Positions 4,844 to 26,220 of a DNA stretch of 32,000 nucleotides are shown here, in pieces. Location: assembly GCA_963705375.1 (NCBI GenBank), contig OY970071.1, positions 420,001 through 452,000 of the forward strand. Direction: 5' to 3'. Within the stretch, counting starts at the first letter, position 1. Each line of letters starts with the position of its first letter. The position numbers and the translations under genes were made by a program. Source of the stretch: Candidatus Saccharimonadota bacterium (GTDB taxonomy: Archaea > Micrarchaeota > Micrarchaeia > Micrarchaeales > Micrarchaeaceae). The notes beneath the pieces were generated by a model, which had not been told where the DNA came from, did not search any database, and was given only the letters and a program-made list of their open reading frames with translations.

Positions 4844-4848
4844 TTTCT

Positions 4849-8958: not shown

Positions 8959-8962
8959 AACA

Positions 8963-10018: not shown

Positions 10019-10035
10019 CATAATTAGGCGGATCA

Positions 10036-10737: not shown

Positions 10738-11103
10738 CTATGCGTTTGGCTTGGCTTTTGTTTCCGGCATGCGCAATGCAGGCATCCAGCTGAGCTGCGA
10801 CAGCAGGTACATGAAAAGCACAACGGCACCTCCATAGATCACGCCCTTCATCGGATTGAACGCCACAAGCACCGCAGCAAAAACGATCCCGATGGCAACG
10901 CATTCGGCCTGGTGCCTTTTGTACTTTTGGCGCACGTTCCTATAGTTCTCGAAGCAATCGCGGCACACGACAAGCCCGTATTTCTTCTCGGTGCCAGTCA
11001 CGCGTTTGAACCACCTTATCGTGTTTAGCACGTAGTCCGGTAGGACTTCGAGACCTTCACGTTTGTTGCCGCACATTATGCAGCGGGATTCTTTTGCCTT
11101 CAT
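10738..11103 (-). CDS. Zn-ribbon membrane protein (N-terminal CxxC...CxxC, two C-terminal TM helices)
   Basis: 121 aa. The Cys pairs are CIMCGN...CRDCFENY, followed by the basic linker RNVRQKYKRHQ. The TM helices are CVAIGIVFAAVLVAF and VIYGGAVVLFMYLLSQL. It starts 4 nt after the upstream gene and is the last gene of the ATPase operon. Confidence 0.7.
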   Translation of the reverse strand: MKAKESRCIMCGNKREGLEVLPDYVLNTIRWFKRVTGTEKKYGLVVCRDCFENYRNVRQKYKRHQAECVAIGIVFAAVLVAFNPMKGVIYGGAVVLFMYLLSQLSWMPALRMPETKAKPNA

Positions 11104-11107
11104 AGCA

Positions 11108-11416
11108 TCAACTCATGTCCAGCGCCGCGTCGTATATGCGGCCTGCCTCTGCGCTGACGCGCTCTTCGTCAAGCGTTTCAAAAACTTCATTTATCGTGAG
11201 GTCGTCCATTCCAAGACGCCTCAGCACATCCGCACACCTGTCACGGTCTATGCCCCCTTTTTCCAGCGCGGCCGTAAACGCCAATGCGTTGATGTGCCTG
11301 TGGCTCTTCTCCATGCTGCTGAACAAAGACTGTATGGCCTTCTCACTCATGCCGAAGATCGTGAGAACGCGCCTCATCTCATTCCTTGCTATGGTGAAGG
11401 TGGTCGCTTTAGGCAT
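11108..11416 (-). CDS. Small helical protein homologous to the C-terminal domain of the adjacent ATPase
   Basis: The ORF spans 11108-11431 with GTG at 11431. ATG at 11416 gives MPKATTFTIARNEMRR... and an 8-nt overlap with the ATPase stop. An ungapped ~67-aa alignment to the ATPase tail shares the core I-x-S-L-F-x-x-M-x-x-x-H-R. Confidence 0.7.
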   Translation of the reverse strand: MPKATTFTIARNEMRRVLTIFGMSEKAIQSLFSSMEKSHRHINALAFTAALEKGGIDRDRCADVLRRLGMDDLTINEVFETLDEERVSAEAGRIYDAALDMS

Positions 11417-12926
11417 GCCCGACACCCGCACTTGAGATTATCCTTGTTATCAACGTATCCTCTATGCTCATGCTCTTCAGGAATGATACTATGTTCGATA
11501 GGCTCACGTTGGCGCCGGCAAGGCTCCTTATGAGGTCCAGTATCTTCATGGCGCGGTGATGGTTGTCCATATCAGTAAACAGGCTGTCGATGGTATCTCC
11601 GCCGACGTTGTACTCTATCAGCTTGTTCTTGAGCTCCTCCTTCTCGAACTGGTATTCGCGCGTGAGGACGTTCGCGGCTATCTCACTCTGCATTAGCACG
11701 TCGCTGAGGTCTAGAGTATAGACGTACAGCGGCTCTTCCCCGTGTATGCGCCCGAGGACGAACGTCTCTGGGAAGCGCAGCGAAGTCTGGAAGGCCATCT
11801 CGACAGCGGCTTGGCCGACACCGAATTTGCTTATCTCGTCACGTATGAAATCTGAGAAGTTGAGCGACCCCTGTATGTAGTTCATGAAGCGCTCGAATTT
11901 TATTCTCAGTATGAAGTTCGTGCCCACGTTAGAGAATATCGCCTCTGCTATGTCTGTCGGGTTTTGCGATGCGACTATGAGGCCGAACTGGTATTTCCTG
12001 CCTTCCCTGACTATCATGATGGCGTCGCTCTTCTCATCGCTTGCGACCTTCCATGCCTCGTCAAGGACCACGAGGGCCCTGAGCCCCTTTGTTTCGCTCC
12101 AGCCTTCGAAACGCATCTGCTCCTTCAGCGTCTGCAGTATGAAAAGCGCTGCGAGGGCCCTGAAGCGCTCGTCAGGCAGCGCTGACAGGTCCATGTCAAC
12201 GAGCCCGGATTTAACGAGTTCGCTTATGTTCAGGGTGCTCTGCCTTGCGAAGTAATCTTCACCTTCTCTTGCGAACTGCTTGAGCCTGTATATCGTGTTC
12301 TCCAGTTCTGCAGGATACTGGTATGTGCCCTCCTGAAGCTTCTCCTGCAGATACTTGACTACATCGTTCAATGTAGGGGCTTGGAGAGCGGCCGGTGGAA
12401 GCTCCGCAAGCTCGAAGCCTGCCTTCGCATATGCCTGTTCCAACGCCTCTTGCGTCAGGCGCCTCTGCTCAGGGTACTGCGCTATGTCGGTCAGTATCTC
12501 GAATGAGGTTATAAGCTGCTTTGCCCTGTCTATCGGCTTCATGCCTGACAGGTCCATTATGTTTAGGAAGTCGCCCTTTCCTAGAGCAATCACTACGCCG
12601 CCGGTCTGCTTCACCCATGCCCTGTATTCGCCAGCCCAGTCTATTATAACAGCGTTTGTGTTCCAAACGTAGCTTGCGCGTATGAGCAGCGTCTTGACGA
12701 AGTAGCTCTTACCGGAACCAGTTATGCCGACAACGCATATGTGCGGGTTCGTCAGATTGAGGAACGACCATGTGAACGGCACCTTGAAGATCTTGGTCAT
12801 GCCTATGTAAATGGATTGGAAGGGGTCGCTGAGCAGCACGCTTGCGGGCGGTTCCGGAGGCCTTGACAAGAAAGCCCTTCTGGCTATCTCGTTGCTCATT
12901 ATGTGCTGCAGTTTGAGCATGGTCAT
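11409..12926 (-). CDS. FtsK/HerA-superfamily ATPase, VirB4/TrbE/CedB-like ATPase domain with extra C-terminal helical domain
   Basis: Walker A is VVGITGSGKSY and Walker B is ALVVLDEAWKV (DEAW type). REGRKYQFGLIVASQNPTDI corresponds to the RK...TQ motif of VirB4/HerA. The track ORF begins at GTG 12980. ATG 12926 lies ~28 nt downstream of a TATTTATA box (12951-12958), consistent with a leaderless start. ATG 12899 is an alternative. Confidence 0.88.
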   Translation of the reverse strand: MTMLKLQHIMSNEIARRAFLSRPPEPPASVLLSDPFQSIYIGMTKIFKVPFTWSFLNLTNPHICVVGITGSGKSYFVKTLLIRASYVWNTNAVIIDWAGEYRAWVKQTGGVVIALGKGDFLNIMDLSGMKPIDRAKQLITSFEILTDIAQYPEQRRLTQEALEQAYAKAGFELAELPPAALQAPTLNDVVKYLQEKLQEGTYQYPAELENTIYRLKQFAREGEDYFARQSTLNISELVKSGLVDMDLSALPDERFRALAALFILQTLKEQMRFEGWSETKGLRALVVLDEAWKVASDEKSDAIMIVREGRKYQFGLIVASQNPTDIAEAIFSNVGTNFILRIKFERFMNYIQGSLNFSDFIRDEISKFGVGQAAVEMAFQTSLRFPETFVLGRIHGEEPLYVYTLDLSDVLMQSEIAANVLTREYQFEKEELKNKLIEYNVGGDTIDSLFTDMDNHHRAMKILDLIRSLAGANVSLSNIVSFLKSMSIEDTLITRIISSAGVGHA

Positions 12927-12950
12927 ATGGCAGAAAGCACTCATCCAAAG

Positions 12951-12958
12951 TATAAATA
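12951..12958 (-). promoter_or_regulatory. TATA box (TATTTATA on minus strand) for the ATPase operon
   Basis: Plus-strand tataaata at 12951-12958 is centred ~28 nt upstream of the in-frame ATG at 12926. Confidence 0.4.
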
Positions 12959-13058
12959 CTTTCTCCTGCAGGCTTTGCACACAAGATATTCGGAAATCCG
13001 GTCAAATATTGAAATCACGGTTTGTGCGAAGGCCTGTTTCATGAAGGAGACGCTGGCA

Positions 13059-13703
13059 TTATTTTCTGGGTTCGAAATCAGGTTTTGGTCTTGGCGCATC
13101 TTTAAACCATAGAACAATGCCGCGATGGTCTTTATTCGAATGACGCGCATCGACGTGCATCATTTGTTCACGAGCGTTGTAGTTAGGGGCGTGGAACACC
13201 ACATAGCCGAGCCCGGGCTCTAGGATTATAGGAGGGATACTTCTGTCGGGCAAACGTACCCTGTAGATGAAGTTAATCCCCGCGCCAGGAACTTTTGCAA
13301 TCGTGGCACCCATACGATGTGAAATCTCAGCTATTTCGGATTCCGATCTGAGGAAATCCGTTCCATGCTGCATCGTTATTATATTGTGCCCGTTTGGAAA
13401 TTCCAGGAGTATGTGCCGGACCCAGACGTCGTTGCCTATCGCGTTCAAGATCTCCTGCCCTGTCGCTGTGTGATATCCTTGTATTTTAAGGCATGCGTCT
13501 TTACCCTTAATCTGAGCATGCCCATCCACAAGCTGCTGCGGAGTGAAGCGCTTACAGGATATGAGCAGTTTGTCCTCGCTTTCGTTGCCCAGTATGCCTT
13601 CGACGAATAGCACTTGTATGTCAGGTCTTTGTTTTATCTCTGCCCGTATGTCGTCTGTTTGCTTTCTCTCTTTCTCATTTTCTTTAGGGATAGATTGTTG
13701 CAT
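13059..13703 (-). CDS. Hypothetical soluble protein, 214 aa
   Basis: ATG-initiated ORF with no TM segments. It has a charged N-terminus (KENEKERKQTDDIRAEIKQR) and a His-rich C-terminal part (FHAPNYNAREQMMHVDARHSNKDHRG). No family was recognised. Confidence 0.65.
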   Translation of the reverse strand: MQQSIPKENEKERKQTDDIRAEIKQRPDIQVLFVEGILGNESEDKLLISCKRFTPQQLVDGHAQIKGKDACLKIQGYHTATGQEILNAIGNDVWVRHILLEFPNGHNIITMQHGTDFLRSESEIAEISHRMGATIAKVPGAGINFIYRVRLPDRSIPPIILEPGLGYVVFHAPNYNAREQMMHVDARHSNKDHRGIVLWFKDAPRPKPDFEPRK

Positions 13704-14108
13704 GTGGTTTCCCAGTCATGTAACATTCGCTTGCGTTGCCGAGATACTTATTCCTATGCTTTGCTGCGACTCTGGGACAAAAGTCCTTCTCACTCCTAGA
13801 TAAGAACCAGAATAGAAAAGGCTACTTGCTGTTTTAAGATGCCTTTTGGATTCACTCGGTCTAAACGGCCTTTTTCTATCGTTCTTTGACGACAGAACGG
13901 ACATTATTACTGATCCGCCTTGCTCTGGTCAATATAATTTGGATGCAAAACGATAAAGATTTTGGCAGAGATAATATAGAAGACCTGAAAAGGTAGAGTG
14001 CCAAAATAATGGTTGACTTATGTCCCAGACTCCTTTGCTGCATTTCGTCGACATATGCGGTTAAACTTCCAGGATAATGCCAGAGCGCGCCTATTGTTTG
14101 CGAAGGCT

Positions 14109-14951
14109 TCAGCTCTGCTGGTCGAACTGTGCCGCTAGCGCGCCGAAAGATGTAGGCAGTGAGAAGTTGAACTGGAACAGAGTGTAGAGCTCGCTCCCCA
14201 CCACACGGACAAGGTCCACATCAAGGCCACTCATGGCTATCTGCAGAGCGTTTAATTGTGTAGACAGTGCGTCAAGCGAGGCCTTCTCGCTCACGCCAAC
14301 TGCAGTAGTCTCCAAGTACATGATTGTCGCTATTGGCTTCTCGCCCTGCGATATCCTGTCTATCTGCGTTTGCAGCACAGCTATCCTTCGTCTCAGGTCG
14401 GTGAGTATCATCTCATTGGAGGAGCTGCTCTGCATTGCCCTTGCCAGTTGGAACTCCTGGAACGAGCGTTTGCCTTCGATTTCGTCGCGCGCTTTCTGAA
14501 CATCAAGACCGGTTGACAGCACATGGAATTTGAACGGAAAGTCCAGGTTCATGAGGATCCTCTCCCAATTCTCAGGGGCCTGCAGGAGCTTTGCCTGGTC
14601 AGCCTCGGCATTTGCCTGCTCTTGCTTGAAGTAATACGGGAACAGGTTCCCGCTAAGATAGCCTGTTGCATAGTAAAGGCCCTTGACATTCTTGACTATG
14701 GCATCCTGGCTGCTGATGATCTTGTAGTTGATTGCCGGTTGGAACGTTATGCCAAGAACGTTCGTCACGAAGGAGAAGACAGTATAGTCTATGAAGTTGA
14801 GCACCAGAAGCAGGCCCATCCCGGCGATGATAATAAGCAGCGCGACGATGGAGAGAAAACCCTTGCCTATCGAAGCAAGGTTGGTTATCGCAAGCAGCGG
14901 CATGAGCATCGTCATGACGAGATAGGATATTCCTTCAGAGTCCACCATCAT
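14109..14951 (-). CDS. Membrane protein: N-terminal TM hairpin plus ~200-aa soluble domain (paralog of 14948-15781)
   Basis: 280 aa. The TM helices are LVMTMLMPLLAITNLASI and FLSIVALLIIIAGMGLLLVL. The soluble domain contains GLYYATGYLSGNLFPYYF, DFPFKFHVLSTGLDVQKARDEIEGKR and ...IATIMYLETTAVGVSEKASLDALSTQLNALQ. An ATGA overlap links it to the upstream gene. Confidence 0.8.
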   Translation of the reverse strand: MMVDSEGISYLVMTMLMPLLAITNLASIGKGFLSIVALLIIIAGMGLLLVLNFIDYTVFSFVTNVLGITFQPAINYKIISSQDAIVKNVKGLYYATGYLSGNLFPYYFKQEQANAEADQAKLLQAPENWERILMNLDFPFKFHVLSTGLDVQKARDEIEGKRSFQEFQLARAMQSSSSNEMILTDLRRRIAVLQTQIDRISQGEKPIATIMYLETTAVGVSEKASLDALSTQLNALQIAMSGLDVDLVRVVGSELYTLFQFNFSLPTSFGALAAQFDQQS

Positions 14952-15781
14952 ATCACCTGCTCCTGTATGCCCTTGCTTATCTGCTCGCTGACTGTCGAGT
15001 ACGGAATGAGGAACTCCGGCTCTATGAACGTCAGGAGATCTTTGCCCGTCACTATGCTAGGAGAGATGCCGAGAACAGTGCCTATTCCGGCCATGAGCTC
15101 CTTTGCCTTCTGCTGCGCTATTGTGGCGGCTTCGAACTCCTTGCTTCCGAAAGCGGATATCGCCGCGTAGCTGGCCAGTTCCAGAGAGGTCGTTGCGCTC
15201 ACGTTGTCTAGCATCTTTCGCCACATCGAAAGCTGGCCTCTCACGCGCTCTATTTTGGGCTGAGGAGCACTTTCCTGGACAAGATTGCTCTCTTCCGCTT
15301 CTTTGTTGTTTATCGCGTCGCGCAGCTGCTGTATGTACGAATCTTTGTTCATGATATAGAGGCTTGTCGTAAACCTTGTAGGGTCCTTGCTGATGCCGAC
15401 AAGCCGGCTGACCTGCCTTGTGAAAGCGGTCTTCTCGTCATCGCTCATCTCTGTCGATGAGCTGTAAAGAGGGATGCTTATGTACACTGTTGCAGTGTAC
15501 GTGTCGCCGTGCTGCTGCAGGACCGAATCTGCGCTTGTGGAAAGACGGTAAGGTTCCTCTTTGCTCAGCACCACGTTCCTGCTGCGCTGCTGCAGCATGG
15601 GCATTATTATGTATGAGTAGCGCCTTGAGAGGCACGCACCAACGTCAACGTCCACTGCGATAAGCAGAAGAAGAAGCTTTACCAAGTCCATGATCCCGCC
15701 ATGGGGAAGAACGATGGCTAGCCCGAGAATCGCAAAGGATGCAACCAATAGGCCCAGGAACAAAACGGTCTTGCTGTCCAC
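14948..15781 (-). CDS. Membrane protein: N-terminal TM hairpin plus ~200-aa soluble domain (paralog of 14109-14951)
   Basis: 277 aa with a GTG start. The TM helices are VLFLGLLVASFAILGLAIVL and LVKLLLLLIAVDVDV. The soluble domain contains DTYTATVYISIPLYSS, TRFTTSLYIMNKDSYIQQLRDAINNKE and ...LELASYAAISAFGSKEFEAATIAQQKAKEL, collinear with the downstream paralog. A TATA-like ATAAAAAT lies ~32 nt upstream. Confidence 0.8.
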   Translation of the reverse strand: MDSKTVLFLGLLVASFAILGLAIVLPHGGIMDLVKLLLLLIAVDVDVGACLSRRYSYIIMPMLQQRSRNVVLSKEEPYRLSTSADSVLQQHGDTYTATVYISIPLYSSSTEMSDDEKTAFTRQVSRLVGISKDPTRFTTSLYIMNKDSYIQQLRDAINNKEAEESNLVQESAPQPKIERVRGQLSMWRKMLDNVSATTSLELASYAAISAFGSKEFEAATIAQQKAKELMAGIGTVLGISPSIVTGKDLLTFIEPEFLIPYSTVSEQISKGIQEQVI

Positions 15782-15828
15782 TCAACTCGGAGCAGAATCT
15801 CAACCAAGATTTTTATGCCTTTACTTTG

Positions 15829-16959
15829 CTACACGAATGAGCGTATCTTGTTTGCGTTTCCATATGTGCCGCCCAGGAAACTGGAGAACTGCGCTATCGT
15901 AGCATACACCATGCCTATTATGAGCGCAGGATAGAAGAGCACAAGAAGCCAGAACGATGACATGTTGGCCTGAACATTCTGCAGCTGCATCGCAAGCGGG
16001 CTGTCAGGCCCAGCGGCATTGGCAGCAGCACTGCTCGCGTCAGAACCGAATCTATTCATCTGCGCGGCCGAAGCAGACATTGACGACTGTACAGAAGGGC
16101 TTGTCAGATAGAATGCTATCGCAAACATCGATGGCATCACGAGATAGAACGAGATGCCTATCGCCATCATGGTGCCGCCAAGTGCCCTTGTCGGAAGGAA
16201 AGCCCTGAACACCACGCCAGGAACGATGAACACGGGGATTGCCGCTATCGAGAAGAACACAAGAACGTAGTATTCGGACCACAGGGCGAGCATGCCGTCT
16301 ACAAGGAAGAACGCTATCGCTCTCGCAGGGTCCAGGAAGCCTATGCTAAGAGGAAGGGTCAGGAAGGAGAGTGTTGACTGCAGGGAGAACGAGGCACCGT
16401 ACGCAGATGAGTAGGTGATGTCCTGGGCAAGGACCCATTTCAACACATAATAGACATTGTATATCGAGGAGAACAGATTTTGCGCCGTGCCTAACGTGCT
16501 GGTGATCAAATTCAGCGCTGTCGCATATGGATTTATGGCACCCACGAGTATTCCAGGGAAAACGCCGAACATCACCGCACACACGTACACGAATATTCCG
16601 ACAATGATCGCGCTTGCAATCGCTTCATATATCTCAGCTATCCCGAAGTTGCGTATCCTGTCGCTCTTGAACGCTATGCCGATCATAACAGCAATCGATG
16701 CGATGCTAAAAGCCAGCAGCACTGCAACGACAGCTATCGGCAGCTCGGTCTGCCACTGCTGGTATATCGCATAGTTTATCGGGCAGTACCAGGTGTACCC
16801 CCCGAGCGCACCACTTATAGATGATGGCAGGGAAGCGCAGCACTCTTGCGGGTAGTTGGCATCGTTTGGGTTGCAGGCGACTGGAGTGTCTGCACGTATA
16901 GTCCCAGTAACCAGGACAGCCATTACGAGCAGCAGCATCATAGCGATAGCGAGTTTCAT
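15829..16959 (-). CDS. Polytopic membrane protein, paralog 1 of 6 (PFTR-GG family; candidate VirB6/TrbL/CedA-like)
   Basis: Signal peptide MKLAIAMMLLLVMAVLVTGTIRA, then a short Cys-containing ectodomain and multiple TM helices. Family motifs are RNFGIAEIYEAIAS and VFRAFLPTRALGGTMMAIGISFYLVMP. AGGTGG overlaps the upstream stop codon 4 nt before ATG 16959. Confidence 0.85.
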   Translation of the reverse strand: MKLAIAMMLLLVMAVLVTGTIRADTPVACNPNDANYPQECCASLPSSISGALGGYTWYCPINYAIYQQWQTELPIAVVAVLLAFSIASIAVMIGIAFKSDRIRNFGIAEIYEAIASAIIVGIFVYVCAVMFGVFPGILVGAINPYATALNLITSTLGTAQNLFSSIYNVYYVLKWVLAQDITYSSAYGASFSLQSTLSFLTLPLSIGFLDPARAIAFFLVDGMLALWSEYYVLVFFSIAAIPVFIVPGVVFRAFLPTRALGGTMMAIGISFYLVMPSMFAIAFYLTSPSVQSSMSASAAQMNRFGSDASSAAANAAGPDSPLAMQLQNVQANMSSFWLLVLFYPALIIGMVYATIAQFSSFLGGTYGNANKIRSFV

Positions 16960-16967
16960 CACACCAC

Positions 16968-18047
16968 CTACACAAGGCCTCCAAGGAGCGACATGAAGTC
17001 GAGCTTTTCTCCGAATGCTTTGGAGAAATCAACTATAAATGCGTCCAGTATCATGAAATTCAAGAACGGTATGAATGTGAACCCCGCTATGAGGTAGCCG
17101 AATTGCGTGATCAGCTTCGGAAGCACCGACGGGTCACCGCCCAGACTAAACATCGCCCAGATCCCCTGGAAAAGGGTTATCAGCGCATTCTGCGAGAGAT
17201 ACTGGGTAATTCCGAGGCTTATGATCTGAAAGTCTATGAAGCCATAGGTTATGCTTATGAGCAAGGGATACACCAGGCCAAGACCCAATCCGATAGCGAT
17301 CATCATGCCTCCGAAGCTCCTTGTGAAGCCGAGGGTCCTTGCCACAAGGCCCAGGGTCATGAAGAAAGCGAGGAAGAAAGGAGCGCACGCGAGAAGGAGC
17401 ACCTGCAGCTGGCAGATCAATGCGCACATCAGGAAAGCCTTAAGGCCTATGCTGAATATCTGACCTATTGTTGGCGGAAGGAGAGACGGCGTATACATAC
17501 CGAAAGAAAGGCCTTTAATCGGAGTGAGCGAGATGGACAGGCCAGGAATCAGACCTGTCACGAAAGGCACGTACATCACCAGAGTCCCGACATCGTACAC
17601 ATAGCCCGTGAAGAAATTGAGGTCGCACTGCGACAGCGAGAATATGTCAGCGGAGGTAGAGCAATCTGGAGGAGCGCCACTTGGAGTGGCACCAGGCGGG
17701 GAGTACTTTGGAACCATGTTAAGGTTGGAATACGCGCCTTGTGGGTTGAACATGAACACATACGAGAAAGCGCCGAACACCATCAGCATCACCAAAGAGA
17801 GAAGCGCCTCGTAGATCTGTATGCGCGCCCATCTTTTTGCGTTTTGGCTTGCAGAAAGGCTGCTGAGAGCGTACACCATCGCAGCGACGGTAGTGACAGC
17901 CAACACACAAATGGCGGCAACAGGCATCCAGTATGAGACCGTCGAGGATATGTTCTGCGCAGGGGATATTGTGGTCGTCGTGGCCTGCGCTAGCGGCAGG
18001 GCTAGGCACACGGACAGAAAAGCCAGTGCAAGCGAGTAGTCTCTCAT
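16968..18047 (-). CDS. Polytopic membrane protein, paralog 2 of 6 (PFTR-GG family)
   Basis: Signal peptide MRDYSLALAFLSVCLALPLAQA. Family motifs are RWARIQIYEALLS and LVARTLGFTRSFGGMMIAIGLGLGLVYP. There is a 4-nt gap to the upstream gene. Confidence 0.85.
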   Translation of the reverse strand: MRDYSLALAFLSVCLALPLAQATTTTISPAQNISSTVSYWMPVAAICVLAVTTVAAMVYALSSLSASQNAKRWARIQIYEALLSLVMLMVFGAFSYVFMFNPQGAYSNLNMVPKYSPPGATPSGAPPDCSTSADIFSLSQCDLNFFTGYVYDVGTLVMYVPFVTGLIPGLSISLTPIKGLSFGMYTPSLLPPTIGQIFSIGLKAFLMCALICQLQVLLLACAPFFLAFFMTLGLVARTLGFTRSFGGMMIAIGLGLGLVYPLLISITYGFIDFQIISLGITQYLSQNALITLFQGIWAMFSLGGDPSVLPKLITQFGYLIAGFTFIPFLNFMILDAFIVDFSKAFGEKLDFMSLLGGLV

Positions 18048-18051
18048 AATA

Positions 18052-19146: not shown

Positions 19147-19153
19147 ACGATCA

Positions 19154-20584
19154 TCAGGGCACCAGCCTTGCAAGGCCTGCGAGATCGGTATCGCCGCCCA
19201 TCAGGCCGGAAAGACCTCGCAACGAGGATATCGCTATAATGATATTTAGAAGTGGCAAAAGGTATATGTCTATCCCCATTATGCCATATGCGTTGAGGAA
19301 TTGATAGAATATTTTGGTCGCGTCCTTGTAATAGCATGTTTGAGGCAGAGCGAGGTCAGGCGCGAAGGTCCCCACTTGGCCTGACGAAGTGAACAGGCCC
19401 ACTATCTCAGAACCTATGGCGTAGAAAGGAACGAGCAACACATCCAGATCTTCTACCTCAGCCCCAAGAAGGTTGCCGTCTGACGGCCAACAGCCGTTAT
19501 TTGATATGACGTTTTTCATATTGGGCTGTACAAAGAAGTTGAGGGTGTACGTCCCTGAAGCAGTGGATAGTGATTGTATCTGAGTGATTGAATTGAAGCC
19601 GTATATCGCGGCGGAGTTGGAGATGTTAGAATTTGAAAGGGAGAGGTACTCTATCGCGTACGTCGCAGGAAAGACCAGCACCATCACCAGCGCTACCGCT
19701 ATGAAGAGACCCCCCAGAGGCCTTGTGAACAGCGTTGAGCGCAACACAAGGCCTATGAAGAGCAGGTACGGCCAGATATAGAGGCACATCACAACGAAAT
19801 ACAGTTGGGCAGACAGCAGCTCGACAGACGTCGTGAGCAGATTTCCGAAAGTGCCTAGATTCTGGATCAGCAGATCATAGCCGGCATAGGGCATGAAGTA
19901 ATATTGGAATTCTGCCAAGGGAGGCAGCGCGCCTTCTATGGGCAGAAGGCACTGAGAATCCACATTGCTGTCATCCGTGCACACCCAGAATGACGGCTTT
20001 ACGCTGTTGAGGAAGCCCAGATAAGCGTCGAAGATGAACGCAGCGTTGACATTCGCGGCAGTCTGATTTGTGATGTTTGCGATTATTGTTGCGGCAGCCG
20101 CAAGAGGATAATCTATCCGTGTGGTCAGGTCAGGATTTTGGGAGTTGGCATCAGACACCACGCCGCATATGCCTTTGAAAGCCAACCCTGAGCTAGTGGT
20201 GGGGCTTGAGAGCAGCGAGTTGGAACTCCCGATCAATGAAAGAGGAGAGGTGCGCATCACATTCGCGCACAGGCTGTTGATCGCGGCAGAGCTCATCAAT
20301 TGGGTGGATTGTCCTAGAACGCTGAAGAACACACCACCATAGACGGTCATGAAACTGATTATTATCAAAGCCAGTATGAAAGTGCCCACGAGCTGGTACA
20401 ATTCGCTCCTGGCCGCGCTCTTGGCCCTGTCGCTGCCAAGTATGACACCTATAAGGTACCAGATGCCGACTATCGCAGAATCCAAGAGTAGCGCGACGAT
20501 GACCACAGGCATGATATAGCTCTGCGCAGTGGTGAAGCTGGTCACGAAGAGGAACTTGCCAGCGATCATCGGGTATTGCAACAC
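19154..20584 (-). CDS. Polytopic membrane protein, paralog 4 of 6 (PFTR-GG family) with enlarged Cys-containing extracellular loop
   Basis: GTG start at 20584, preceded by AGGTG (5-nt spacer) that overlaps the upstream TAG. Family motifs are KSAARSELYQLVG and LVLRSTLFTRPLGGLFIAVALVMVLVFP. Confidence 0.85.
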   Translation of the reverse strand: MLQYPMIAGKFLFVTSFTTAQSYIMPVVIVALLLDSAIVGIWYLIGVILGSDRAKSAARSELYQLVGTFILALIIISFMTVYGGVFFSVLGQSTQLMSSAAINSLCANVMRTSPLSLIGSSNSLLSSPTTSSGLAFKGICGVVSDANSQNPDLTTRIDYPLAAAATIIANITNQTAANVNAAFIFDAYLGFLNSVKPSFWVCTDDSNVDSQCLLPIEGALPPLAEFQYYFMPYAGYDLLIQNLGTFGNLLTTSVELLSAQLYFVVMCLYIWPYLLFIGLVLRSTLFTRPLGGLFIAVALVMVLVFPATYAIEYLSLSNSNISNSAAIYGFNSITQIQSLSTASGTYTLNFFVQPNMKNVISNNGCWPSDGNLLGAEVEDLDVLLVPFYAIGSEIVGLFTSSGQVGTFAPDLALPQTCYYKDATKIFYQFLNAYGIMGIDIYLLPLLNIIIAISSLRGLSGLMGGDTDLAGLARLVP

Positions 20585-20592
20585 ATTGACAC

Positions 20593-23154
20593 CTATATGC
20601 TGTTCCAGAACGAACCGACTCCCTCAAGCCCGGAGTTGAGCGCCTTTGCCAGCCCTGTCGCGAAGCCTATCGTTATCGCAAAGTTTATACCGAATAATAC
20701 AACAGCCTGGAATAAATACTGCGCCATCTGCGTGATGAGGTTGCGCGCATCGTTCATCACATTCCACGGGTTTAGCAGCTGGACGTTTGAGCTGAGAGTG
20801 TTCCAGAAGAGGCCGCCAGCGCTCAAGAATGCCGATCCAGCGTTCGATAATGCCGACCCTGATGTTGAGGACTCGGAAGAGAAGAAAGAATTCACATTTA
20901 TGTTATTCAGCATATAGCTCTGGCCGGAATTTGTGAGTGCATAATTCATTATCGTGGAGTCGAATGCTATCGTAAGGGGATATATCAAGTACATTGCGAT
21001 CGCCAACGCCAGCAGCGCGTTAGCGGATTTCCTAAGTTCAGTACCAGTGAATGCAAGAGAGCGCATGATTATCGCGACGGGCAGTATGGTGGTGAACGCG
21101 GTATACTCCATCACCACAAGCAGCAGATACTGCAGAAACAGCGCTCCGGTCGCCATCGTGATCATCGGAGAGAATAGCGCCATGTACAGTTGTGACAGCG
21201 AGGTGAACACGCTAGACAGAGCGTTTATGTTTGGCAGCACCAGCGACACTGATAGGAAAGAGCTCGAAAACAGAGGGAGACCGAAGTCGGAAAACATCTT
21301 GCCTGCATTCTCGTAGCCAGCGCCGCTGACTGCGCCGCCGAAGAAGTCCAAGACCTGGTAGATTATCTGTGCCTCGACCTGGTATGCGACGGAATAGGAG
21401 TAGAGCTGGGTCAGCAGCCCCACGCCAGTCACTGTGGCCAGGTTCCCTATATAATTGTCAGCGAACTGGAATGGATTAAGGTTATTCCCGTTTTCGTAGT
21501 TCTTTGTGTAGCTCACAGACAGGTTGCATGCGACCTGCGCAGACCCTACCAGTATGGCTATTATCACTGCGCTGAGCAGGATCTGGCTTGACTCGGCCTT
21601 TACAGCATCTATAAGCTTGGCCCTGGTCTTTGCCGGAAACACGTTGGCTATCGCATACACGAATGCTACGACAGTCAGGCTTATGAGTATGACCAAGAAG
21701 TTTATGCCTATCCAGTTGCCCGTGTAGCCATTGCCGCCATTGGCGTAAAGCGCGCACGTTGCTATTGTGGTTGTGCTGGTCGAGGTAGATGTCGAGGTAC
21801 TCGTCGTTGATGATGTTGTAGTGGTGGAGTATACCACCATCGTGGTGTGGTCCCCGCTTGGGTTGTAGTTAGAGTCTCCTTGGAAGGCGGCATATATGGT
21901 ATGGGTGCCCAATCCAAATGCAGACGCAGGTTTAGTAAGTGACGCTTGATAAGTAGAGCCCGTTTGTGTAGTTGCATAACCTATTTGGTGTGCAGAGTCC
22001 ATAACGTCTTCGTAGAAATACACAAAGTCGTTCGCTTGCGGCCTAGGAGAGATGTATACGGCCATAGTTACAGGAGCGCTACCAAGAAGTACAGAATTAG
22101 GAGCCACGACCAAGGTGGTAGGTGCCGTTCCAGGATACACGGATACCTGAATGGTTCCGCTACTCGCAGTGTGGAAGGTGACTATCGGACTACCGGCAGA
22201 ATATTGAGAGAGTGTTGCGGAAAAAGTGTAAGTGTTTCCTCCTTGCAGGAGGCTCGACGGAACAGTCACACTATACTGGCCACTACTTGGGAATGATGCT
22301 CCGAATTGCGACTGAAGGCTTGCGCCCAAATTCTCATACACAATCACGCACGACGTAGTTTGTGAGGCAGAACATGGGCGCAGCGTGGCAGAAGATGCGG
22401 ACACAGTGCCAGATATGGTTACTGAGTTTGGATATGTCACAGATGATGACGAGCTAGAAATGGATATGGCCGTGTTGACTATCGTGGTGCTAGAGGTTGT
22501 AGAGGTGGAGGTCGTAGATGTGGTGGTGGAGGTGGAGGTTGAGACCGAGGTGGTGAACGACGCGGAAAACCAGACCACGTCCCGGAAGTTGCACGTCGCA
22601 TAGCTGCAACACGACATACAGCCTACGCTGTAACCATTAACACAGTCACAGCCGCAAGTTCCCCAAGGCGCATACTGAAACAAAAAGACATAGCCCTGTG
22701 CTGCTCCATTTTTAGTGTAGGACCACACTTCAGTACCCTGCTGGTATAGAACAGTGCCACTACTCCAAGTATCGGGAGAGGAACTGGAGGAGCCGTGGCA
22801 GTATGGGAAGCTGTATTGGTTAGTATTAGTAAAAACATACGTTTTTGAGCCAGATGTGCACGTGAATGAAGAGACAGATGATGTAAGGTACCCAGAAGTA
22901 TAGTGGTTACCACCAAGCATACATTGAACGGTAGTCGTGTCTAGACCCGCATCTCCGGCATTTTGAGATGCACTCCCGAAAGTAAATGAGCAGCCTGGAT
23001 TAGGAGCCCAAGAATATCCATAATATGTAGTACCGCCAACGATGCAGGAAGTAGGGTCTGCCTTTATGTACGTGCACAGTCCCAGCAGCATTATGACAGA
23101 TATCAGAAGAATGAAGGCCAGCAGGTGCGGGTGTGTGCGGTTGTGTGGTGCCAT
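20593..23154 (-). CDS. Chimeric surface/membrane protein, paralog 5 of 6: signal peptide, Cys-rich domain, Ser/Thr linkers, Ig-like domains, then C-terminal PFTR-family membrane module
   Basis: 853 aa with a signal peptide (HLLAFILLISVIMLLGLCTYIKA). It has a ~160-aa Cys-rich region (GTCGCDCVNGYSVGCMSCCSYATC) and S/T tracts at aa ~199-239 and ~443-464. An Ig-like unit ends GTHTIYAAFQGDSNY. The membrane module carries a degenerate motif, IIMRSLAFTGTELRKSANALLALAIAMYLIYP. Confidence 0.85.
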   Translation of the reverse strand: MAPHNRTHPHLLAFILLISVIMLLGLCTYIKADPTSCIVGGTTYYGYSWAPNPGCSFTFGSASQNAGDAGLDTTTVQCMLGGNHYTSGYLTSSVSSFTCTSGSKTYVFTNTNQYSFPYCHGSSSSSPDTWSSGTVLYQQGTEVWSYTKNGAAQGYVFLFQYAPWGTCGCDCVNGYSVGCMSCCSYATCNFRDVVWFSASFTTSVSTSTSTTTSTTSTSTTSSTTIVNTAISISSSSSSVTYPNSVTISGTVSASSATLRPCSASQTTSCVIVYENLGASLQSQFGASFPSSGQYSVTVPSSLLQGGNTYTFSATLSQYSAGSPIVTFHTASSGTIQVSVYPGTAPTTLVVAPNSVLLGSAPVTMAVYISPRPQANDFVYFYEDVMDSAHQIGYATTQTGSTYQASLTKPASAFGLGTHTIYAAFQGDSNYNPSGDHTTMVVYSTTTTSSTTSTSTSTSTSTTTIATCALYANGGNGYTGNWIGINFLVILISLTVVAFVYAIANVFPAKTRAKLIDAVKAESSQILLSAVIIAILVGSAQVACNLSVSYTKNYENGNNLNPFQFADNYIGNLATVTGVGLLTQLYSYSVAYQVEAQIIYQVLDFFGGAVSGAGYENAGKMFSDFGLPLFSSSFLSVSLVLPNINALSSVFTSLSQLYMALFSPMITMATGALFLQYLLLVVMEYTAFTTILPVAIIMRSLAFTGTELRKSANALLALAIAMYLIYPLTIAFDSTIMNYALTNSGQSYMLNNINVNSFFSSESSTSGSALSNAGSAFLSAGGLFWNTLSSNVQLLNPWNVMNDARNLITQMAQYLFQAVVLFGINFAITIGFATGLAKALNSGLEGVGSFWNSI
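21763..21828 (-). repeat. Second Ser/Thr-coding linker tract immediately before the membrane module
   Basis: Encodes STTTTSSTTSTSTSTSTSTTTI. Confidence 0.6.
22438..22560 (-). repeat. Low-complexity Ser/Thr-coding tract (probable O-glycosylated linker)
   Basis: Encodes SFTTSVSTSTSTTTSTTSTSTTSSTT...SISSSSSS. The plus strand shows gtggaggt/gtagaggt-type short repeats. Confidence 0.6.
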
Positions 23155-23158
23155 GGTA

Positions 23159-24727
23159 TCACGCGAGTTTGAACTTGCCTACGCCGAGCCTGACGGAGCC
23201 CCCAAGCGGCTTTGCGATTGCGTTCGCAGCTATGAGCGTGATTATCATGTCAAGGAAGAACAGTATGAACTGTATGCTCATGCCCGCACCGTATCTCGTT
23301 ATGAAATTCATGACGGGAAAGATGCTGTTGATGTTCAGTATGTTTAGGCCTGTAGTGAGGCCGTTGTTGAATGCGGGCACGTTTACGTTCTGAGAGCCGA
23401 CGACCATGCCCATCAAAACCGTAGGTATTGCAGACAGCGCACTGACTAAAAAGGAGATTACGCCATCGACTGCGTCGCAGAAAATTCCGGAGCTGTATGC
23501 GGTGGCGCACGACCCGCTAGAAGGAGGTACAGACGTCACGTAGCTGAAATAGTTGGTGACTGGCATGTTAAGCACCAGCATGAGAGTGGGGTACACCAGA
23601 GCTATCGCTATGCCGATACCTATCATCGTGCCGCCTATCGGGCGCAGGAAGGGCATGGAACGGAGTATCACGCCCATCGGAACGAAAACCGAAAGCCCGA
23701 GCACGACTATCGTGGGCAGAAGATCGTATTGGAATTGCAAGAGCATCAGCATCGGGACTATGACGATCGTCAGTATGTCCTTAAGGAAAGAGTAGCCTGC
23801 GCCGCCTGTAGATGTAAGGAAGTTGCTGGCAAGCAGTTTTACGTTGTAAGACCCGAACTTGAAGGTTACGACCGTGACCAGAGGAGTTTCCGGAGGGGGC
23901 AATGGTATCGGAAACCATGTCGAGAGCATCATGCCGGTCAACGTGCCCAGCCCAACGGACAGACCCATGATTGCGGAGAAGGCAGCGTAGGCCGCGTTCA
24001 GCTGCGGAGTGAGATAGCCAGAGTACACGTTCTGATACAGCGCGCAAAGGTTCGTGGTCAATGCTGAGCTCGTTATGCAAGGATTTGCAAACGTGCCGCC
24101 AGTCGAGGAAGCGATATTGGAAGCAAAAGCGGTCGAGACGTTGCTCACCATCACCAGGACGCTGTACAGTACCGCGATTATCAGCGCGCTCTTGGTGACT
24201 TCCCACAGTTCGCCCCTGTACCAATTCTGGAAGCCGTCGATCCTGAGCACTTCACCCATCATGTATGCCACAGCTACGAACGAGAGAGATAGCATTATGC
24301 CGACGCCTGCTATCGGCATCGAGTCGGCGATGCAGCTGCCAAGGTCTCCGGCAGTTCCGATTATGCAATGGAAAGGATTTACGGTCACCTGAACGCCTGC
24401 GCCAGGACCGATCATCGTACCCGATGAATCGTAAGGATAAACATTCACAACATAGTTTGTTTGTGTTGACGCCGATAAGATCATGGTGCACGTGCTGCTT
24501 GACGATGAGCAGGAATTTGGCTCTTGATTGCCAGTATTGCTGTTTGTAAGGAACCAGCTGTAGGTCGCAGGAGTTCCACCAGTAACGCTGGCAGTGAAAG
24601 TGGATGCAAAGCCCGAACTGACGATATTTGTAGGCGAGACGGTGAGAGAATCTTGTGCCGCATTTGGCATATGCGCAAATGAGAGCACAACAAATAACAG
24701 CAGCAGCAGCAACTGCGCCTTCCGCAT
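23159..24727 (-). CDS. Paralog 6 of 6: signal peptide plus one Ig/PKD-like domain fused to a PFTR-family membrane module
   Basis: 522 aa. The signal peptide is MRKAQLLLLLLFVVLSFAHMPNAAQD. The ectodomain reads LTVSPTNIVSSGFASTFTASVTGGTPATYSWF...VVNVYPYDSSG. Family motifs are WYRGELWEVTKSA and VILRSMPFLRPIGGTMIGIGIAIALVYP. A TATA-like CTAATAAAAGG lies ~27 nt upstream of the ATG. Confidence 0.85.
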   Translation of the reverse strand: MRKAQLLLLLLFVVLSFAHMPNAAQDSLTVSPTNIVSSGFASTFTASVTGGTPATYSWFLTNSNTGNQEPNSCSSSSSTCTMILSASTQTNYVVNVYPYDSSGTMIGPGAGVQVTVNPFHCIIGTAGDLGSCIADSMPIAGVGIMLSLSFVAVAYMMGEVLRIDGFQNWYRGELWEVTKSALIIAVLYSVLVMVSNVSTAFASNIASSTGGTFANPCITSSALTTNLCALYQNVYSGYLTPQLNAAYAAFSAIMGLSVGLGTLTGMMLSTWFPIPLPPPETPLVTVVTFKFGSYNVKLLASNFLTSTGGAGYSFLKDILTIVIVPMLMLLQFQYDLLPTIVVLGLSVFVPMGVILRSMPFLRPIGGTMIGIGIAIALVYPTLMLVLNMPVTNYFSYVTSVPPSSGSCATAYSSGIFCDAVDGVISFLVSALSAIPTVLMGMVVGSQNVNVPAFNNGLTTGLNILNINSIFPVMNFITRYGAGMSIQFILFFLDMIITLIAANAIAKPLGGSVRLGVGKFKLA

Positions 24728-24872
24728 GCTACGTTATAACAAGGAAGCCTTTTATTAGTTAGCTCTCGGCAGAAGAACGGAGGTCGTTGCCGCCGTGCAG
24801 ATTCCTGAATGCGCGCCAGCCAGACAGCAAGGATTGCTCTGCACTAGCACTTCTGCGGCAAGACGGAGAGCA

Positions 24873-25604
24873 TCAGCGCTTCAGCATCTTGAACCTGTTT
24901 ATGTAGAACTCGCCCTGGAGCACCACAAGGAAAGGCAGTATGAAGAGCGAGCTGAATATCAGCATCGCGTACCTTGAGACCAGCGTACCGCCCACCAGTA
25001 TGAATATGAAATCGAAGGCGCTCAGAAGGACCACTGCCACTACGGCCCATATCGCAAAGTAGTCAGGCCTGCGCATGAAGAACCTGAAGCTTGAACGCAG
25101 GGAGTGCAGCACCCTGCTGTCGTCAATGACCACGGACGATGGCGCATAGAAGAAAAGCGGAGTCAGCGCCAGGCCTGCGACAGCGGCAGCCGATGCGGAG
25201 TAGCTGGTGCCATAGAACAGCACGCTGACAAGAAGCAGTATGAGCGTCTCTAGCATCAGCAGCATGAACACCTTGCTCGTGTATGTCTCAAGACCTTCCA
25301 TGACCTCGCGCCGTATCCTTGTGTGGGTCCTGCTGTGCTTGCACATGACGTTGATAGCGACTATCGCAAAGCTGAGGAACAGCAAGGAGAAGAACACAGC
25401 GACAACTATGACTGCGGTGCTGAGAACGGTCATGTTGAGGAACACGCTTGAGGTCCTCAGCAGTATCGCACCCATGTCATTGTATGTGGGAAAAGCGGCA
25501 AATATGGGAATGAGGAACGCGAGCACGAACGCCAGCGAGAACAGGAGTATCAGCTTTATGTTCTTCATGTACGTGCCAACTGAATAGAGCAGTATGTTAG
25601 ACAT
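24873..25604 (-). CDS. Polytopic membrane protein (~6 TM), function unknown
   Basis: The track ORF starts at TTG 25631. An ATATTTTTATTG TATA-like element at 25634-25645 favours ATG 25604 (MSNILLYSVGTYMKNIKLILLF...). The protein has hydrophobic helices throughout and basic loops (KHSRTHTRIRRE, RFFMRRPD). Confidence 0.8.
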   Translation of the reverse strand: MSNILLYSVGTYMKNIKLILLFSLAFVLAFLIPIFAAFPTYNDMGAILLRTSSVFLNMTVLSTAVIVVAVFFSLLFLSFAIVAINVMCKHSRTHTRIRREVMEGLETYTSKVFMLLMLETLILLLVSVLFYGTSYSASAAAVAGLALTPLFFYAPSSVVIDDSRVLHSLRSSFRFFMRRPDYFAIWAVVAVVLLSAFDFIFILVGGTLVSRYAMLIFSSLFILPFLVVLQGEFYINRFKMLKR

Positions 25605-25744
25605 AAACGCACGCAGACTAATGCCTGGCAATCAATAAAAATATGTCGCTTGCCTGCCGCAGGTTTGGAATGGCAGTGAGACCTGCCTTTTCATCGCAGC
25701 AGGAGCGCACTGCCGCAGCGCGCACCTTTCTTCGCTAGCAAGAA

Positions 25745-25790
25745 TCAATAGAAGAAATGAAAAGAAAGAATCTTGGCAAAGACTGCCAAG
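25745..25790 (-). terminator. Hairpin plus T-rich tract downstream of the pilin-like gene
   Basis: cttggca (25772-25778), a 5-nt loop, then tgccaag (25784-25790). On the minus strand this is followed by ATTCTTTCTTTTCATTTCTTCTATTG. The hairpin starts ~44 nt after the stop at 25834. Confidence 0.45.
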
Positions 25791-25833
25791 TGGCCAATGC
25801 CGCGCACAGTTTAGCAGATTAGCTAACTGCGGA

Positions 25834-26220
25834 CTAACCGCATTGAGATGCAATAGAGGTGTTGCTGGTTATGACGCCCATGATCCATGGAGCTATCATC
25901 GCAAGCACGACGCCGGCAATCCCTCCGGTTATCATGCCCATGCCGTAGCCCTGGATCTGTCCCTTGAGGTTTCCTGGAGCTATGTTGCCGCCAGCATACA
26001 GCATGGCGCCCAGAACAAGAAGCGTAAGGCCGAGCACATACACTGCGGTGTGCACGATGCTGTACACCGCGCATATAGGAGCGAGCACGTTGGCAAGGCC
26101 CGACGTCGCCGCTACAGGCACCAGAGCGCACACATATCCGAGGAACATTGCAAACATTATGGTAAACTTGAAGTACATCCCGTACTTCTGCATCGCCAAT
26201 AGGATTTTGCTTGGATTCAT
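25834..26220 (-). CDS. Small two-helix membrane protein, candidate VirB2/TrbC/CedA1-like conjugative-type pilin
   Basis: 128 aa. It has a long leader with a hydrophobic core ending ALVPVAA-TSG. Two Gly/Ala-rich hydrophobic helices follow (VYVLGLTLLVLGAMLYAGG and GMGMITGGIAGVVLAMIAPWIMGVI), joined by a short loop containing a basic residue (NIAPGNLKGQ). It has its own promoter region and terminator. Confidence 0.5.
   Translation of the reverse strand: MNPSKILLAMQKYGMYFKFTIMFAMFLGYVCALVPVAATSGLANVLAPICAVYSIVHTAVYVLGLTLLVLGAMLYAGGNIAPGNLKGQIQGYGMGMITGGIAGVVLAMIAPWIMGVITSNTSIASQCG

Follow-up and report, generated by a model that had tools for sequence, protein, structure and literature searches.

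A cluster of about 17 genes in a Micrarchaeota chromosome, 16 of which encode conserved proteins, combines a VirB4-type ATPase, a putative VirB2-like hairpin protein and many membrane proteins of no known family. It lies within a 32,000-nucleotide stretch of DNA (here called the window; contig OY970071.1 of assembly GCA_963705375.1, positions 420,001 to 452,000), where the conserved unit spans approximately 6441-26220 on the minus strand, excluding an inserted gene (g11) and an inserted VapBC pair. We put the probability at roughly one half that the cluster encodes one envelope-spanning machine and that this machine is a domesticated, highly diverged type IV secretion system (T4SS)/Ced-type apparatus. 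The DNA-import systems Ced (in Sulfolobales) and Ted (in Thermoproteales) are established archaeal T4SS derivatives (PMC9905601, PMC11868833); membership of the present cluster in Ced/Ted is not established. Four observations argue for one essential envelope machine, and against a mobile element or genes that are neighbors by chance: collinearity across the phylum, the retention of one orthologue for each paralogue, conservation greater than that of the adjacent topoisomerase VI subunit B (TopoVI-B), and a mix of cytoplasmic, membrane and extracellular parts.

The means by which DPANN archaea fasten onto hosts and obtain material from them are a central question, and no genes have been assigned to the envelope complexes that cryo-electron tomography (cryo-ET) has revealed where Micrarchaeota touch their hosts. 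The locus offers a testable candidate present throughout one phylum: 15 of its 16 conserved proteins belong to no described family, and co-cultures exist for three carriers (Mia14, A_DKE, and ARM-1). The locus was not described in any paper found by full-text searches for Micrarchaeota in combination with HerA, VirB4, DUF87, secretion, or gene clusters. Nor is it described in the genome papers of Mia14 and A_DKE, the former of which lists type IV pili, Sec, and Tat as secretion systems.

A gene cluster kept in order across Micrarchaeota

The preliminary description of this DNA had reported co-oriented, translationally coupled minus-strand genes between 10738 and 26220. All of its open reading frames (ORFs) were confirmed in the window sequence and ORF list, on the same strand and with the same coordinates, and adjacent genes were separated by gaps of 4-8 nt or overlapped slightly (e.g., an ATGA shared by g09 and g10). 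That range contains real genes but missed three conserved ones (h15, h16, and h17), because of which the unit extends beyond it. The conserved components, and a terminator-like element among them, are as follows.

g01, 25834..26220, minus strand: 128-residue secreted two-helix hydrophobic protein
Terminator-like hairpin, 25772..25790, minus strand: 8-pair stem and then the T-rich tail ATTCTTTCTT, downstream of g01
g02, 24873..25604, minus strand: polytopic protein of ~243 residues with ~6 transmembrane (TM) segments by hydropathy; the ORF reaches 25631
g03, 23159..24727, minus strand: paralogue 1 of a 5-TM family, with a ~120-residue N-terminal immunoglobulin (Ig)/PKD-like ectodomain
g04, 20593..23154, minus strand: paralogue 2, with a ~465-residue N-terminal Cys- and Ser/Thr-rich ectodomain containing an Ig-like segment
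g05, 19154..20584, minus strand: paralogue 3, with a large extracellular insert
g06, 18052..19173, minus strand: paralogue 4
g07, 16968..18047, minus strand: paralogue 5
g08, 15829..16962, minus strand: paralogue 6, the most conserved; a signal peptide and a short N-terminal Cys-rich stretch precede 5 TM segments
g09, 14948..15781, minus strand: N-terminal TM hairpin and ~220-residue Cys-poor domain; present in 44 of 45 loci
g10, 14109..14951, minus strand: paralogue of g09, whose stop its start overlaps (ATGA)
g12, 11409..12926, minus strand: 505-residue VirB4/HerA-class P-loop ATPase; the ORF runs to 12980
g13, 11108..11431, minus strand: cytoplasmic helical protein of ~100 residues; present in 44 of 45 loci
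g14, 10738..11103, minus strand: Zn-ribbon (CxxC...CxxC) and C-terminal hydrophobic hairpin; present in 43 of 45 loci
h15, 8963..9691, minus strand: cytoplasmic, 242 residues, built of an N-terminal domain, a coiled coil, and a winged helix at the C-terminus
h16, 8806..8958, minus strand: very basic protein of ~50 residues, conserved in position and sequence
h17, 6441..8795, minus strand: 784-residue bitopic, glycoprotein-like protein; the last conserved gene, convergent with TopoVI-B

The shared gene order was (g01) g02 g03 g04 g05 g06 g07 g08 g09 g10 ATPase g13 g14 h15 h16 h17. Synteny was examined in 45 species-level genomes with at least 9.5 kb of upstream and at least 7 kb of downstream sequence. 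In 42 of these the arrangement was fully collinear (g02-g10, ATPase, g13, g14, h15, h16, and h17 beside TopoVI-B), and 14 proteins were collinear one-to-one orthologues, including in the cultured A_DKE and Mancarchaeum. Single components were found in 40-45 of the 45 genomes, with the exception of g02, which the end of the locus sequence often truncated. The genes for h17 (minus strand) and TopoVI-B (plus strand) converge, with stop regions that share 4 nt (6441-6444), an adjacency also kept in 42 of 45 genomes. Every window protein had its own best orthologue in the three genomes that were compared (“Ca. Mancarchaeum,” a Mancarchaeum-like metagenome-assembled genome, and another Micrarchaeon), in which TopoVI-B and then a KH gene stood on the other strand beyond h17. 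Median identity was higher for the ATPase (67%) than for TopoVI-B (60%).

A genome scan with the ATPase recovered 284 species-representative relatives. The best 80, to which the scan results refer, bore Micrarchaeota-type names, except for a few labeled Marsarchaeota or archaeon, and included “Ca. Micrarchaeum sp.” A_DKE and ARM-1. Among the best 120 of 1045 protein-cluster matches, homologues were 68-86% identical and the named sources were nearly all Micrarchaeota, Micrarchaeia, or Micrarchaeaceae; these matches included “Ca. Mancarchaeum acidiphilum,” and a few source names were probably mislabeled. Across Micrarchaeota, ATPase identity was 61-86%. The locus is a chromosomal, vertically inherited core feature of the phylum, as these comparisons support, and the neighborhood conservation that the preliminary description had proposed to look for was found.

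The ATPase, the hairpin protein, and the membrane components

The motifs from which a VirB4/TrbE-type ATPase had been recognized (VVGITGSGKS, VVLDEAWK, and REGRKYQFGLIVASQNP) were all present in ORF 11409-12980. Its start is probably the ATG at 12926, since homologues are ~505 residues long. At the N-terminus, members of the g12 family share the invariant peptide FxSRPPEPP, and ~68 residues separate Walker A from the start. With only these residues preceding Walker A, g12 probably lacks both the N-terminal domain of VirB4 and the HAS barrel of HerA. In that regard, the Pfam scan gave no match to PF03135 (CagE_TrbE_VirB), no HAS barrel was detected in alignments to HerA (which begin at HerA residue ~137-140, equivalent to g12 residue ~77), and no TM segment was detected in g12.

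Pfam matches of g12 were the DUF87/HerA central domain (4e-17), AAA_10, and P-loop_TraG. The best NCBIfam models were CedD (3e-21; 75.7 bits against a cut-off of 600) and CedB (4e-18; 65.2 bits against a cut-off of 700), followed by VirB4-like CD1110 (3e-16), Thermoproteota HerA (5e-16), Mycoplasma VirB4 (2e-15), and TraC (4e-14). VirB4-like families ranged from 1e-16 to 1e-10, all NCBIfam scores were far under the family cut-offs, and the CedD and CedB matches would be read at the superfamily level only. PADLOC returned HerA (2e-20). Among PDB sequences, HerA entries (8wiv and 4d2i) scored best, mostly over the C-terminal half, and VirB4 (4ag5) aligned across the whole ATPase domain (residues 59-326, 1e-9).

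For comparison with T4SS components, profiles of 9 MPF_T sequences each were made for VirB2, VirB4, and VirB6 and aligned with hhalign; they were built because single R388 sequences (TrwI, TrwL, and TrwK) gave only insignificant scores, the true VirB4 control included, and so were too insensitive. Against the VirB4 C-terminal-domain profile the g12 family reached a probability of 94.9% (E 4e-8, 268 columns). Plasmid relatives of g12 were TraC/VirB4, with 354 of 516 records conjugative. The closest was VirB4 of Clostridium botulinum pDB2, part of a monoderm conjugation operon that also encodes a relaxase, a VirD4-like protein, and a membrane protein of the pLS20_p028 type. The sequence evidence thus supports g12 as a homologue of the VirB4 ATPase domain within the VirB4/HerA/CedB group, in agreement with the VirB4-class assignment first made for it.

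The last ~110 residues of g12 (11409-11750) are helical and paralogous to g13 (E 1e-3 within the window, 4e-9 against Mancarchaeum g13). Both g13, with its conserved HRH motif, and the g12 C-terminus are weakly EF-hand-pair-like, with calmodulin-type matches at E ~3e-3 at best. A reading of the two as helix-hairpin-helix (HhH) DNA-binding modules was unsupported, as profile searches gave these weak EF-hand-like matches instead.

The hairpin protein g01 is predicted to carry a Sec-type signal peptide that would be cleaved in an AAQ/ATS region. Full-length members of its family retain the signal peptide and two long hydrophobic helices, with a short loop containing K/R between the helices and one Cys close to either end of the mature protein. 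In the family alignment, Cys50 and Cys127 are conserved near the mature N- and C-termini, and the pair would form a disulfide tying both ends together. A promoter and terminator of its own had been ascribed to g01; an A/T-rich TATA-like box stands upstream of it, promoter-like by sequence alone, and the 202-bp spacer that separates it from the rest of the cluster holds the hairpin and T-tract listed above. A word-indexed search found 10 close homologues, a set later extended by hidden Markov model (HMM) with further members in L038, L043, L045, L071, and L084; the Mancarchaeum-like genome has a homologous 134-residue gene in the same position (hhalign 99.6%, E 1e-24).

The TrbC/VirB2 family (PF04956) was the top and most frequent Pfam family of g01, matching 3 of the 10 homologues (E 0.013-0.15) with 15-16 bits against a cut-off of 27.9 and covering profile positions 11-98 of 98. 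Aligned with the VirB2 profile, g01 reached 35% (E 4e-4), with signal peptide, cleavage site, and helix 1 in register, and relaxed hhalign settings lengthened the alignment to 103 columns. Controls remained low: 0.3% for reversed g01, 0.1% for VirB3, and ≤5% for VirB3 and other TM families. These sequence results are suggestive, not proof, that g01 is a VirB2-like pilin. Its AlphaFold2 (AF2) model had a predicted local distance difference test score (pLDDT) of 67, and PDB sequence and profile searches gave no pilin match.

Elsewhere, three tandem g01-like genes occur in L084 (734-2054, plus strand), and in L043 a g01 gene (7623-8000, plus strand) stands directly upstream of g09-g10-ATPase, with the polytopic genes not alongside. 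Such arrangements typify a main structural subunit tied to the ATPase module. Homology of g01 to the N-terminus of the polytopic proteins, of the kind reported for CedA1/CedA, was tried and rejected as not significant (hhalign 0.9-4.9%).

Six tandem polytopic paralogues had been proposed, and g03-g08 are indeed true, distant paralogues: pairwise BLASTP E-values ran from 1e-8 to marginal, and all share the motif GxVLR(S/T)LPFTRxxGG...YP, in which R253, R259, and P277 are invariant across the six window proteins. Each has its own orthologue elsewhere, which suggests a hetero-oligomer. The g08-type family comprised 2815 representatives at 50% clustering (E≤1e-3), and of the 150 listed the few named members were Micrarchaeota or mislabeled. 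The AF2 model of g08 (pLDDT 85.7, pTM 0.76) contains helices of 35-60 residues. Read from hydropathy and from the helices of this single-chain model, the predicted topology would be a signal peptide, a Cys-rich outside segment, TM1, a basic loop, TM2, a long extracellular helical hairpin, TM3, the conserved R...TR...GG loop on the cytoplasmic side, TM4, an outside loop, and TM5, with the C-terminus inside.

The label VirB6-like, which the preliminary description had given these proteins, was not supported by comparison. The 53 aligned members of the family had no Pfam or NCBIfam TrbL/VirB6 match at E≤1, and a PDB profile search was empty. Alignment with the VirB6 profile gave 0.1% (hhalign), and comparison with one pLS20_p028-family monoderm VirB6-like protein, a single sequence, was negative. 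Foldseek found no neighbor for the g08 model (TM-score <0.25 against the PDB and ≤0.34 against BFVD). The family likewise matched no transporter or other known family in Pfam, NCBIfam, or the PDB. The six-paralogue platform may occupy the place of VirB6/CedA, maybe as a different invention.

Ectodomain fusions in this family are real and recur: N-terminal Big_3_5, Ig_3, or PKD domains exceeded Pfam thresholds in polytopic members of other lineages, and this recurrence supports an exposed N-terminus and an adhesion role. In the window, a Big_3_5-like segment of g04 fell under the cut-off (3.7e-6), and the membrane core of g04 (residues 466-853) is orthologous to proteins of 385-410 residues elsewhere. 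The start of g02, the further ~6-TM protein, is probably the ATG at 25604, as in its orthologues (242-247 residues, in 34 of 45 full loci); its match to the BPSS1780 family was weak and under the cut-off (6e-6).

The two TM-hairpin proteins g09 and g10 are paralogous, as had been supposed (hhalign 98.5%, E 3.5e-15). By hydropathy and charge, their domain of ~220 residues is probably cytoplasmic, because it is Cys-poor and follows a hydrophobic hairpin and then basic residues. The g09 protein is a candidate membrane anchor or adaptor for the ATPase. Profile searches of g09 and g10 found no PDB match.

Among the remaining components, the Zn-ribbon and hairpin of g14 bear out its first description. 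The h15 protein (43 of 45 loci, median identity 54%) matched a ZapB-like coiled coil and an EAP30/PCI/Rrf2/CdvB-type winged helix, all under cut-offs, and PDB profile searches of g13 and h15 gave only generic coiled-coil or EF-hand-like matches. Counterparts of h16 are a 47-residue ORF in Mancarchaeum and genes of 45-47 residues in the same position in compared genomes. The h17 protein, found in 43 of 45 loci, has an N-terminal TM/signal anchor, a ~500-residue ectodomain with 22 N-glycosylation sequons, a second TM segment at ~545-569, and a C-terminal domain of ~215 residues that is probably cytoplasmic; it had no Pfam, NCBIfam, or PADLOC match. In all, 15 of the 16 conserved proteins lacked a Pfam, NCBIfam, or PDB relative above threshold.

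Genes inserted into the cluster in this window are listed separately.

g11, 13059..13703, minus strand: 214-residue soluble ORFan; window-specific insertion, outside the conserved system
VapB-like antitoxin, 10036-10248, plus strand: 70 residues; overlaps the VapC ORF; insertion
PIN/VapC toxin, 10245-10619, plus strand: 124 residues (PIN 8e-11); insertion

The preliminary description had counted g11 as a part of the machine. This gene separates g10 from the ATPase in this genome only (it is missing there in L001, L002, and L085), had no tblastn match in 84 related loci, and was a singleton in a collection of 15 billion proteins. It lies in a GC dip to 0.457 with a 405-bp AT-rich spacer upstream. 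The VapB/VapC pair, inserted between g14 and h15, also lies in a GC dip and is missing from related loci. GC content is otherwise even at 0.50-0.53, dipping only around 10-11 kb and 13-14 kb, at both insertions.

On the h17 side, the cluster is flanked by ordinary chromosomal genes encoding a KH-domain protein and TopoVI-B (4220-6444). Beyond g01 stand a gene for a very basic 424-residue protein (26281-27555, plus strand, divergent from g01) and one for a 1241-residue protein (28206-31931, minus strand), both without a Pfam or PADLOC match; each occurs in only 1-3 related loci, so the conserved cluster stops at g01. An 890-residue surface protein (1448-4120, minus strand) carries a signal/anchor and Kelch-like blades with the repeat ANNYIYCMG (Kelch_6, 3e-14), along with an Ig-like Big_3_5 domain (1.8e-20) and linkers rich in Thr and Asn, and has a TM anchor at its C-terminus. 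This protein is likely an adhesin or S-layer-associated protein and is not kept in related loci. No tRNA or Rfam elements were found in the window.

One envelope machine and the alternatives to it

The assembly, stoichiometry, cargo, and symbiotic role of such a machine, as we infer them, would be as follows. The soluble g12, a VirB4-type ATPase that lacks the N-terminal domain and, to judge from its relatives, presumably forms a hexamer, would be anchored to the membrane through the cytoplasmic domains of g09 and g10, with g13, g14, h15, and h16 acting as cytoplasmic accessories. It would power a hetero-oligomeric platform or channel of six anciently duplicated 5-TM proteins (g03-g08), each contributing a long extracellular helical hairpin and, in many lineages, an exposed N-terminal Ig/PKD-type adhesion domain. 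As a VirB2-like structural subunit, g01 would form a pilus, a tube, or the lining of a pore, and h17 together with the ectodomains would mediate host contact. Its function would be the transport of a macromolecule between symbiont and host or neighboring cells, with DNA the likeliest cargo, a choice favored only by analogy with Ced and T4SS. A role for it where symbiont and host meet is plausible, because Micrarchaeota live as obligate ectosymbionts and unexplained envelope complexes have been imaged at the points where they touch their hosts (PMC11329633, PMC5498576); the machine is probably tied to the symbiotic lifestyle. If the T4SS/Ced-type reading is true, such machines would reach into DPANN in an unusual design that combines an ATPase stripped of its N-terminal domain, paralogous anchors encoded separately, and a membrane platform of six paralogues.

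A number of observations weigh against that reading. Only g12 is securely related to components of T4SS or Ced, and by HMM scores it is about equally far from HerA and VirB4. The signal linking g01 to VirB2 is under any significance threshold. The pilin assignment made for g01 in the preliminary description keeps weak sequence support (TrbC in 3 of 10 homologues, VirB2 at 35%) and no structural match: Foldseek against the PDB returned only generic helical hairpins (such as SmhB and AhlB, E ~0.5) and no pilin; neither g01 nor the polytopic family had a Foldseek or PDB sequence match to any pilus entry. The proteins g03-g08 are without sequence, profile, or structural similarity to VirB6/TrbL. 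Reading g09 and g10 as a split VirB3 or VirB4 N-terminal domain, as their position and topology might suggest, found no support, at ≤2.4% in an hhalign test of limited sensitivity. No DNA-processing gene was found, g13 is not HhH-like, and the winged helix of h15 resembles protein-binding types. Lastly, ARM-1 (L059, AP024486, 1-12500) keeps the ATPase-g13-g14-h15-h17-TopoVI-B block and has glycosyltransferases, arginase, and RtcB upstream of the ATPase instead of g02-g10, and in ARM-1, L035, L043, and L052 alike the 10 kb upstream of the ATPase contain no polytopic gene. The last three keep g09-g10-ATPase. These arrangements indicate that the membrane and ATPase modules are separable.

The alternative that survives best, possible in our view and still clearly the less likely, is a new ATP-driven envelope complex that shares only the ATPase fold with T4SS, has a cargo other than DNA, and uses g01 to build a pore or ring. 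It might, for instance, be a barrel that docks or gates host-derived nanotubes, a conduit for nutrients or lipids, or a system for assembly and secretion of surface proteins. This alternative would accommodate the 15 of 16 proteins without a relative above threshold, the g08 fold without a neighbor, the adhesion-type ectodomains encoded in the cluster, and profile searches of g13 and h15 in which no DNA-binding module was detected. Cryo-ET of ARM-1 has moreover revealed a 21-nm barrel of unknown composition beneath the S-layer that receives host nanotubes (PMC11329633). Yet the closest characterized relatives of the ATPase are the DNA-transfer ATPases CedD/CedB, VirB4, and TraC, the VirB2/TrbC signal of g01 is specific though weak, and in ARM-1 itself the membrane module is not beside the ATPase. 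There is a substantial chance that most of the system is categorically new.

A bolder form of the T4SS/Ced-type reading, which we hold to be speculative and rather unlikely as a whole, would make the cluster the symbiont-side apparatus at the Micrarchaeota-host interface: an ancient, highly diverged offshoot of T4SS essential for DPANN symbiosis, in which the single VirB6-type subunit was replaced by a six-paralogue ring matching a hexameric VirB4-like motor without the N-terminal domain and the set is completed by a disulfide-closed VirB2-like subunit. Candidates for structures that this apparatus might be are the “filamentous connections” of ARMAN and the 21-nm barrel of ARM-1.

It is improbable that the cluster encodes a membrane-anchored, HerA/FtsK-like DNA pump for chromosome segregation or division whose link to TopoVI-B reflects a shared chromosome-resolving role. 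HerA proteins were the best PDB sequence matches of the ATPase, the position beside TopoVI-B is conserved, the very high conservation suggests housekeeping, and h15 combines a ZapB-like coiled coil with an ESCRT-type winged helix, at weak E-values. However, the HAS barrel was not detected, neither NurA nor Mre11 nor Rad50 is encoded nearby, TopoVI-B is transcribed from the other strand and only converges on the cluster, and the coiled-coil matches of h15 are generic. Nor would such a pump need six polytopic proteins that bear variable Ig/PKD ectodomains, a hairpin protein that is secreted, and a heavily glycosylated ectodomain protein. Assignment to a defense system was rejected as well: PADLOC gave only generic HerA/DndH ATPase matches, with none for the partner proteins.

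An integrated conjugative element, plasmid remnant, or provirus with its own transfer genes, as VirB4-like ATPases (typical of such elements), the many homologue-less small membrane ORFs (like archaeal “dark matter” islands), and the VapBC pair and ORFan inside the cluster might suggest, is effectively refuted by a chromosomal position and gene order that 42 of 45 species-level genomes across the phylum share, by divergence like or below that of TopoVI-B, by a GC content matching the flanks save at the two insertions, by the absence of integrase, relaxase, VirD4, and replication genes among the larger window ORFs scanned against Pfam and NCBIfam and of a flanking tRNA, and by the lack of any relative in 2.9 million viral contigs. 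On this point our results agree with the first impression of a chromosomal apparatus that is not a classical conjugative element.

Comparison with known systems

With HerA the cluster shares the DUF87/HerA central ATPase domain. It differs in that no HAS barrel was detected, in having no NurA/Mre11/Rad50 or Sir2/DUF4297 partner, and in being an operon of membrane proteins; genes for such proteins neighbor the ATPase in every locus compared.

The giant SPEARE proteins of Nanohaloarchaeota carry Ig-like adhesion repeats, a membrane span, and a VirB4/TraG-like ATPase domain, for which a T4SS-like role in interaction with the host has been proposed (PMC10266531). By that published description, they represent another DPANN lineage that combines adhesion repeats with a VirB4-like ATPase. 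In SPEARE, however, the parts are fused in a giant polypeptide and accompanied by a second, full-length VirB4 with the PF03135 N-terminal domain, whereas the Micrarchaeota cluster has many separate small proteins, no PF03135, and other accessory families.

Bacterial T4SS, especially the monoderm MPF_FATA-like forms, resemble the cluster in having an ATPase domain to which that of g12 is homologous, with TraC/VirB4 as the nearest plasmid relatives, and in the VirB2-like layout of g01 (a long signal peptide and two hydrophobic helices), which gave weak TrbC/VirB2 matches. VirB6 of Agrobacterium tumefaciens is reported to have an outside N-terminus, 5 TM segments, a large TM2-TM3 loop, and an inside C-terminus, and the predicted 5-TM topology of g08 is the only likeness of the polytopic proteins to it. 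The VirB4 N-terminal domain, VirB3, VirB6/TrbL homology, VirB8, VirD4, VirB11, a relaxase, and a cell-wall hydrolase were not found here. Indeed, among the larger window ORFs searched against Pfam and NCBIfam for a coupling ATPase or relaxase, the only TrwB/VirD4-type matches were to the P-loop of g12. The cluster further departs from bacterial T4SS in being chromosomal, phylum-wide, and vertically inherited and in its six paralogous membrane subunits.

Like Ced and Ted, the cluster is chromosomal, domesticated, and non-mobile, and it pairs a HerA/VirB4-class ATPase with polytopic membrane protein(s) and a small two-helix protein. The cleavable Sec-type signal peptide predicted for g01 recalls that of TedC (PMC9905601). 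Paralogous duplication is also known from Ced, in which ATPase and channel components have duplicated (CedD and CedE; PMC11868833). Neither g01 nor g08 had an NCBIfam match at E≤0.1, in a library whose inclusion of CedA/TedA models is unconfirmed. The design itself sets the cluster apart: Ced and Ted have one or two channel-like paralogues, against six here, and neither a TM segment nor an N-terminal domain was detected in the Micrarchaeota ATPase. Eight or more additional conserved components (g02, g09, g10, g13, g14, and h15-h17) also distinguish the cluster from both archaeal systems, and, whereas Ced and Ted belong to a setting of UV-induced DNA exchange, the present cluster belongs to DPANN archaea living in obligate symbiosis.

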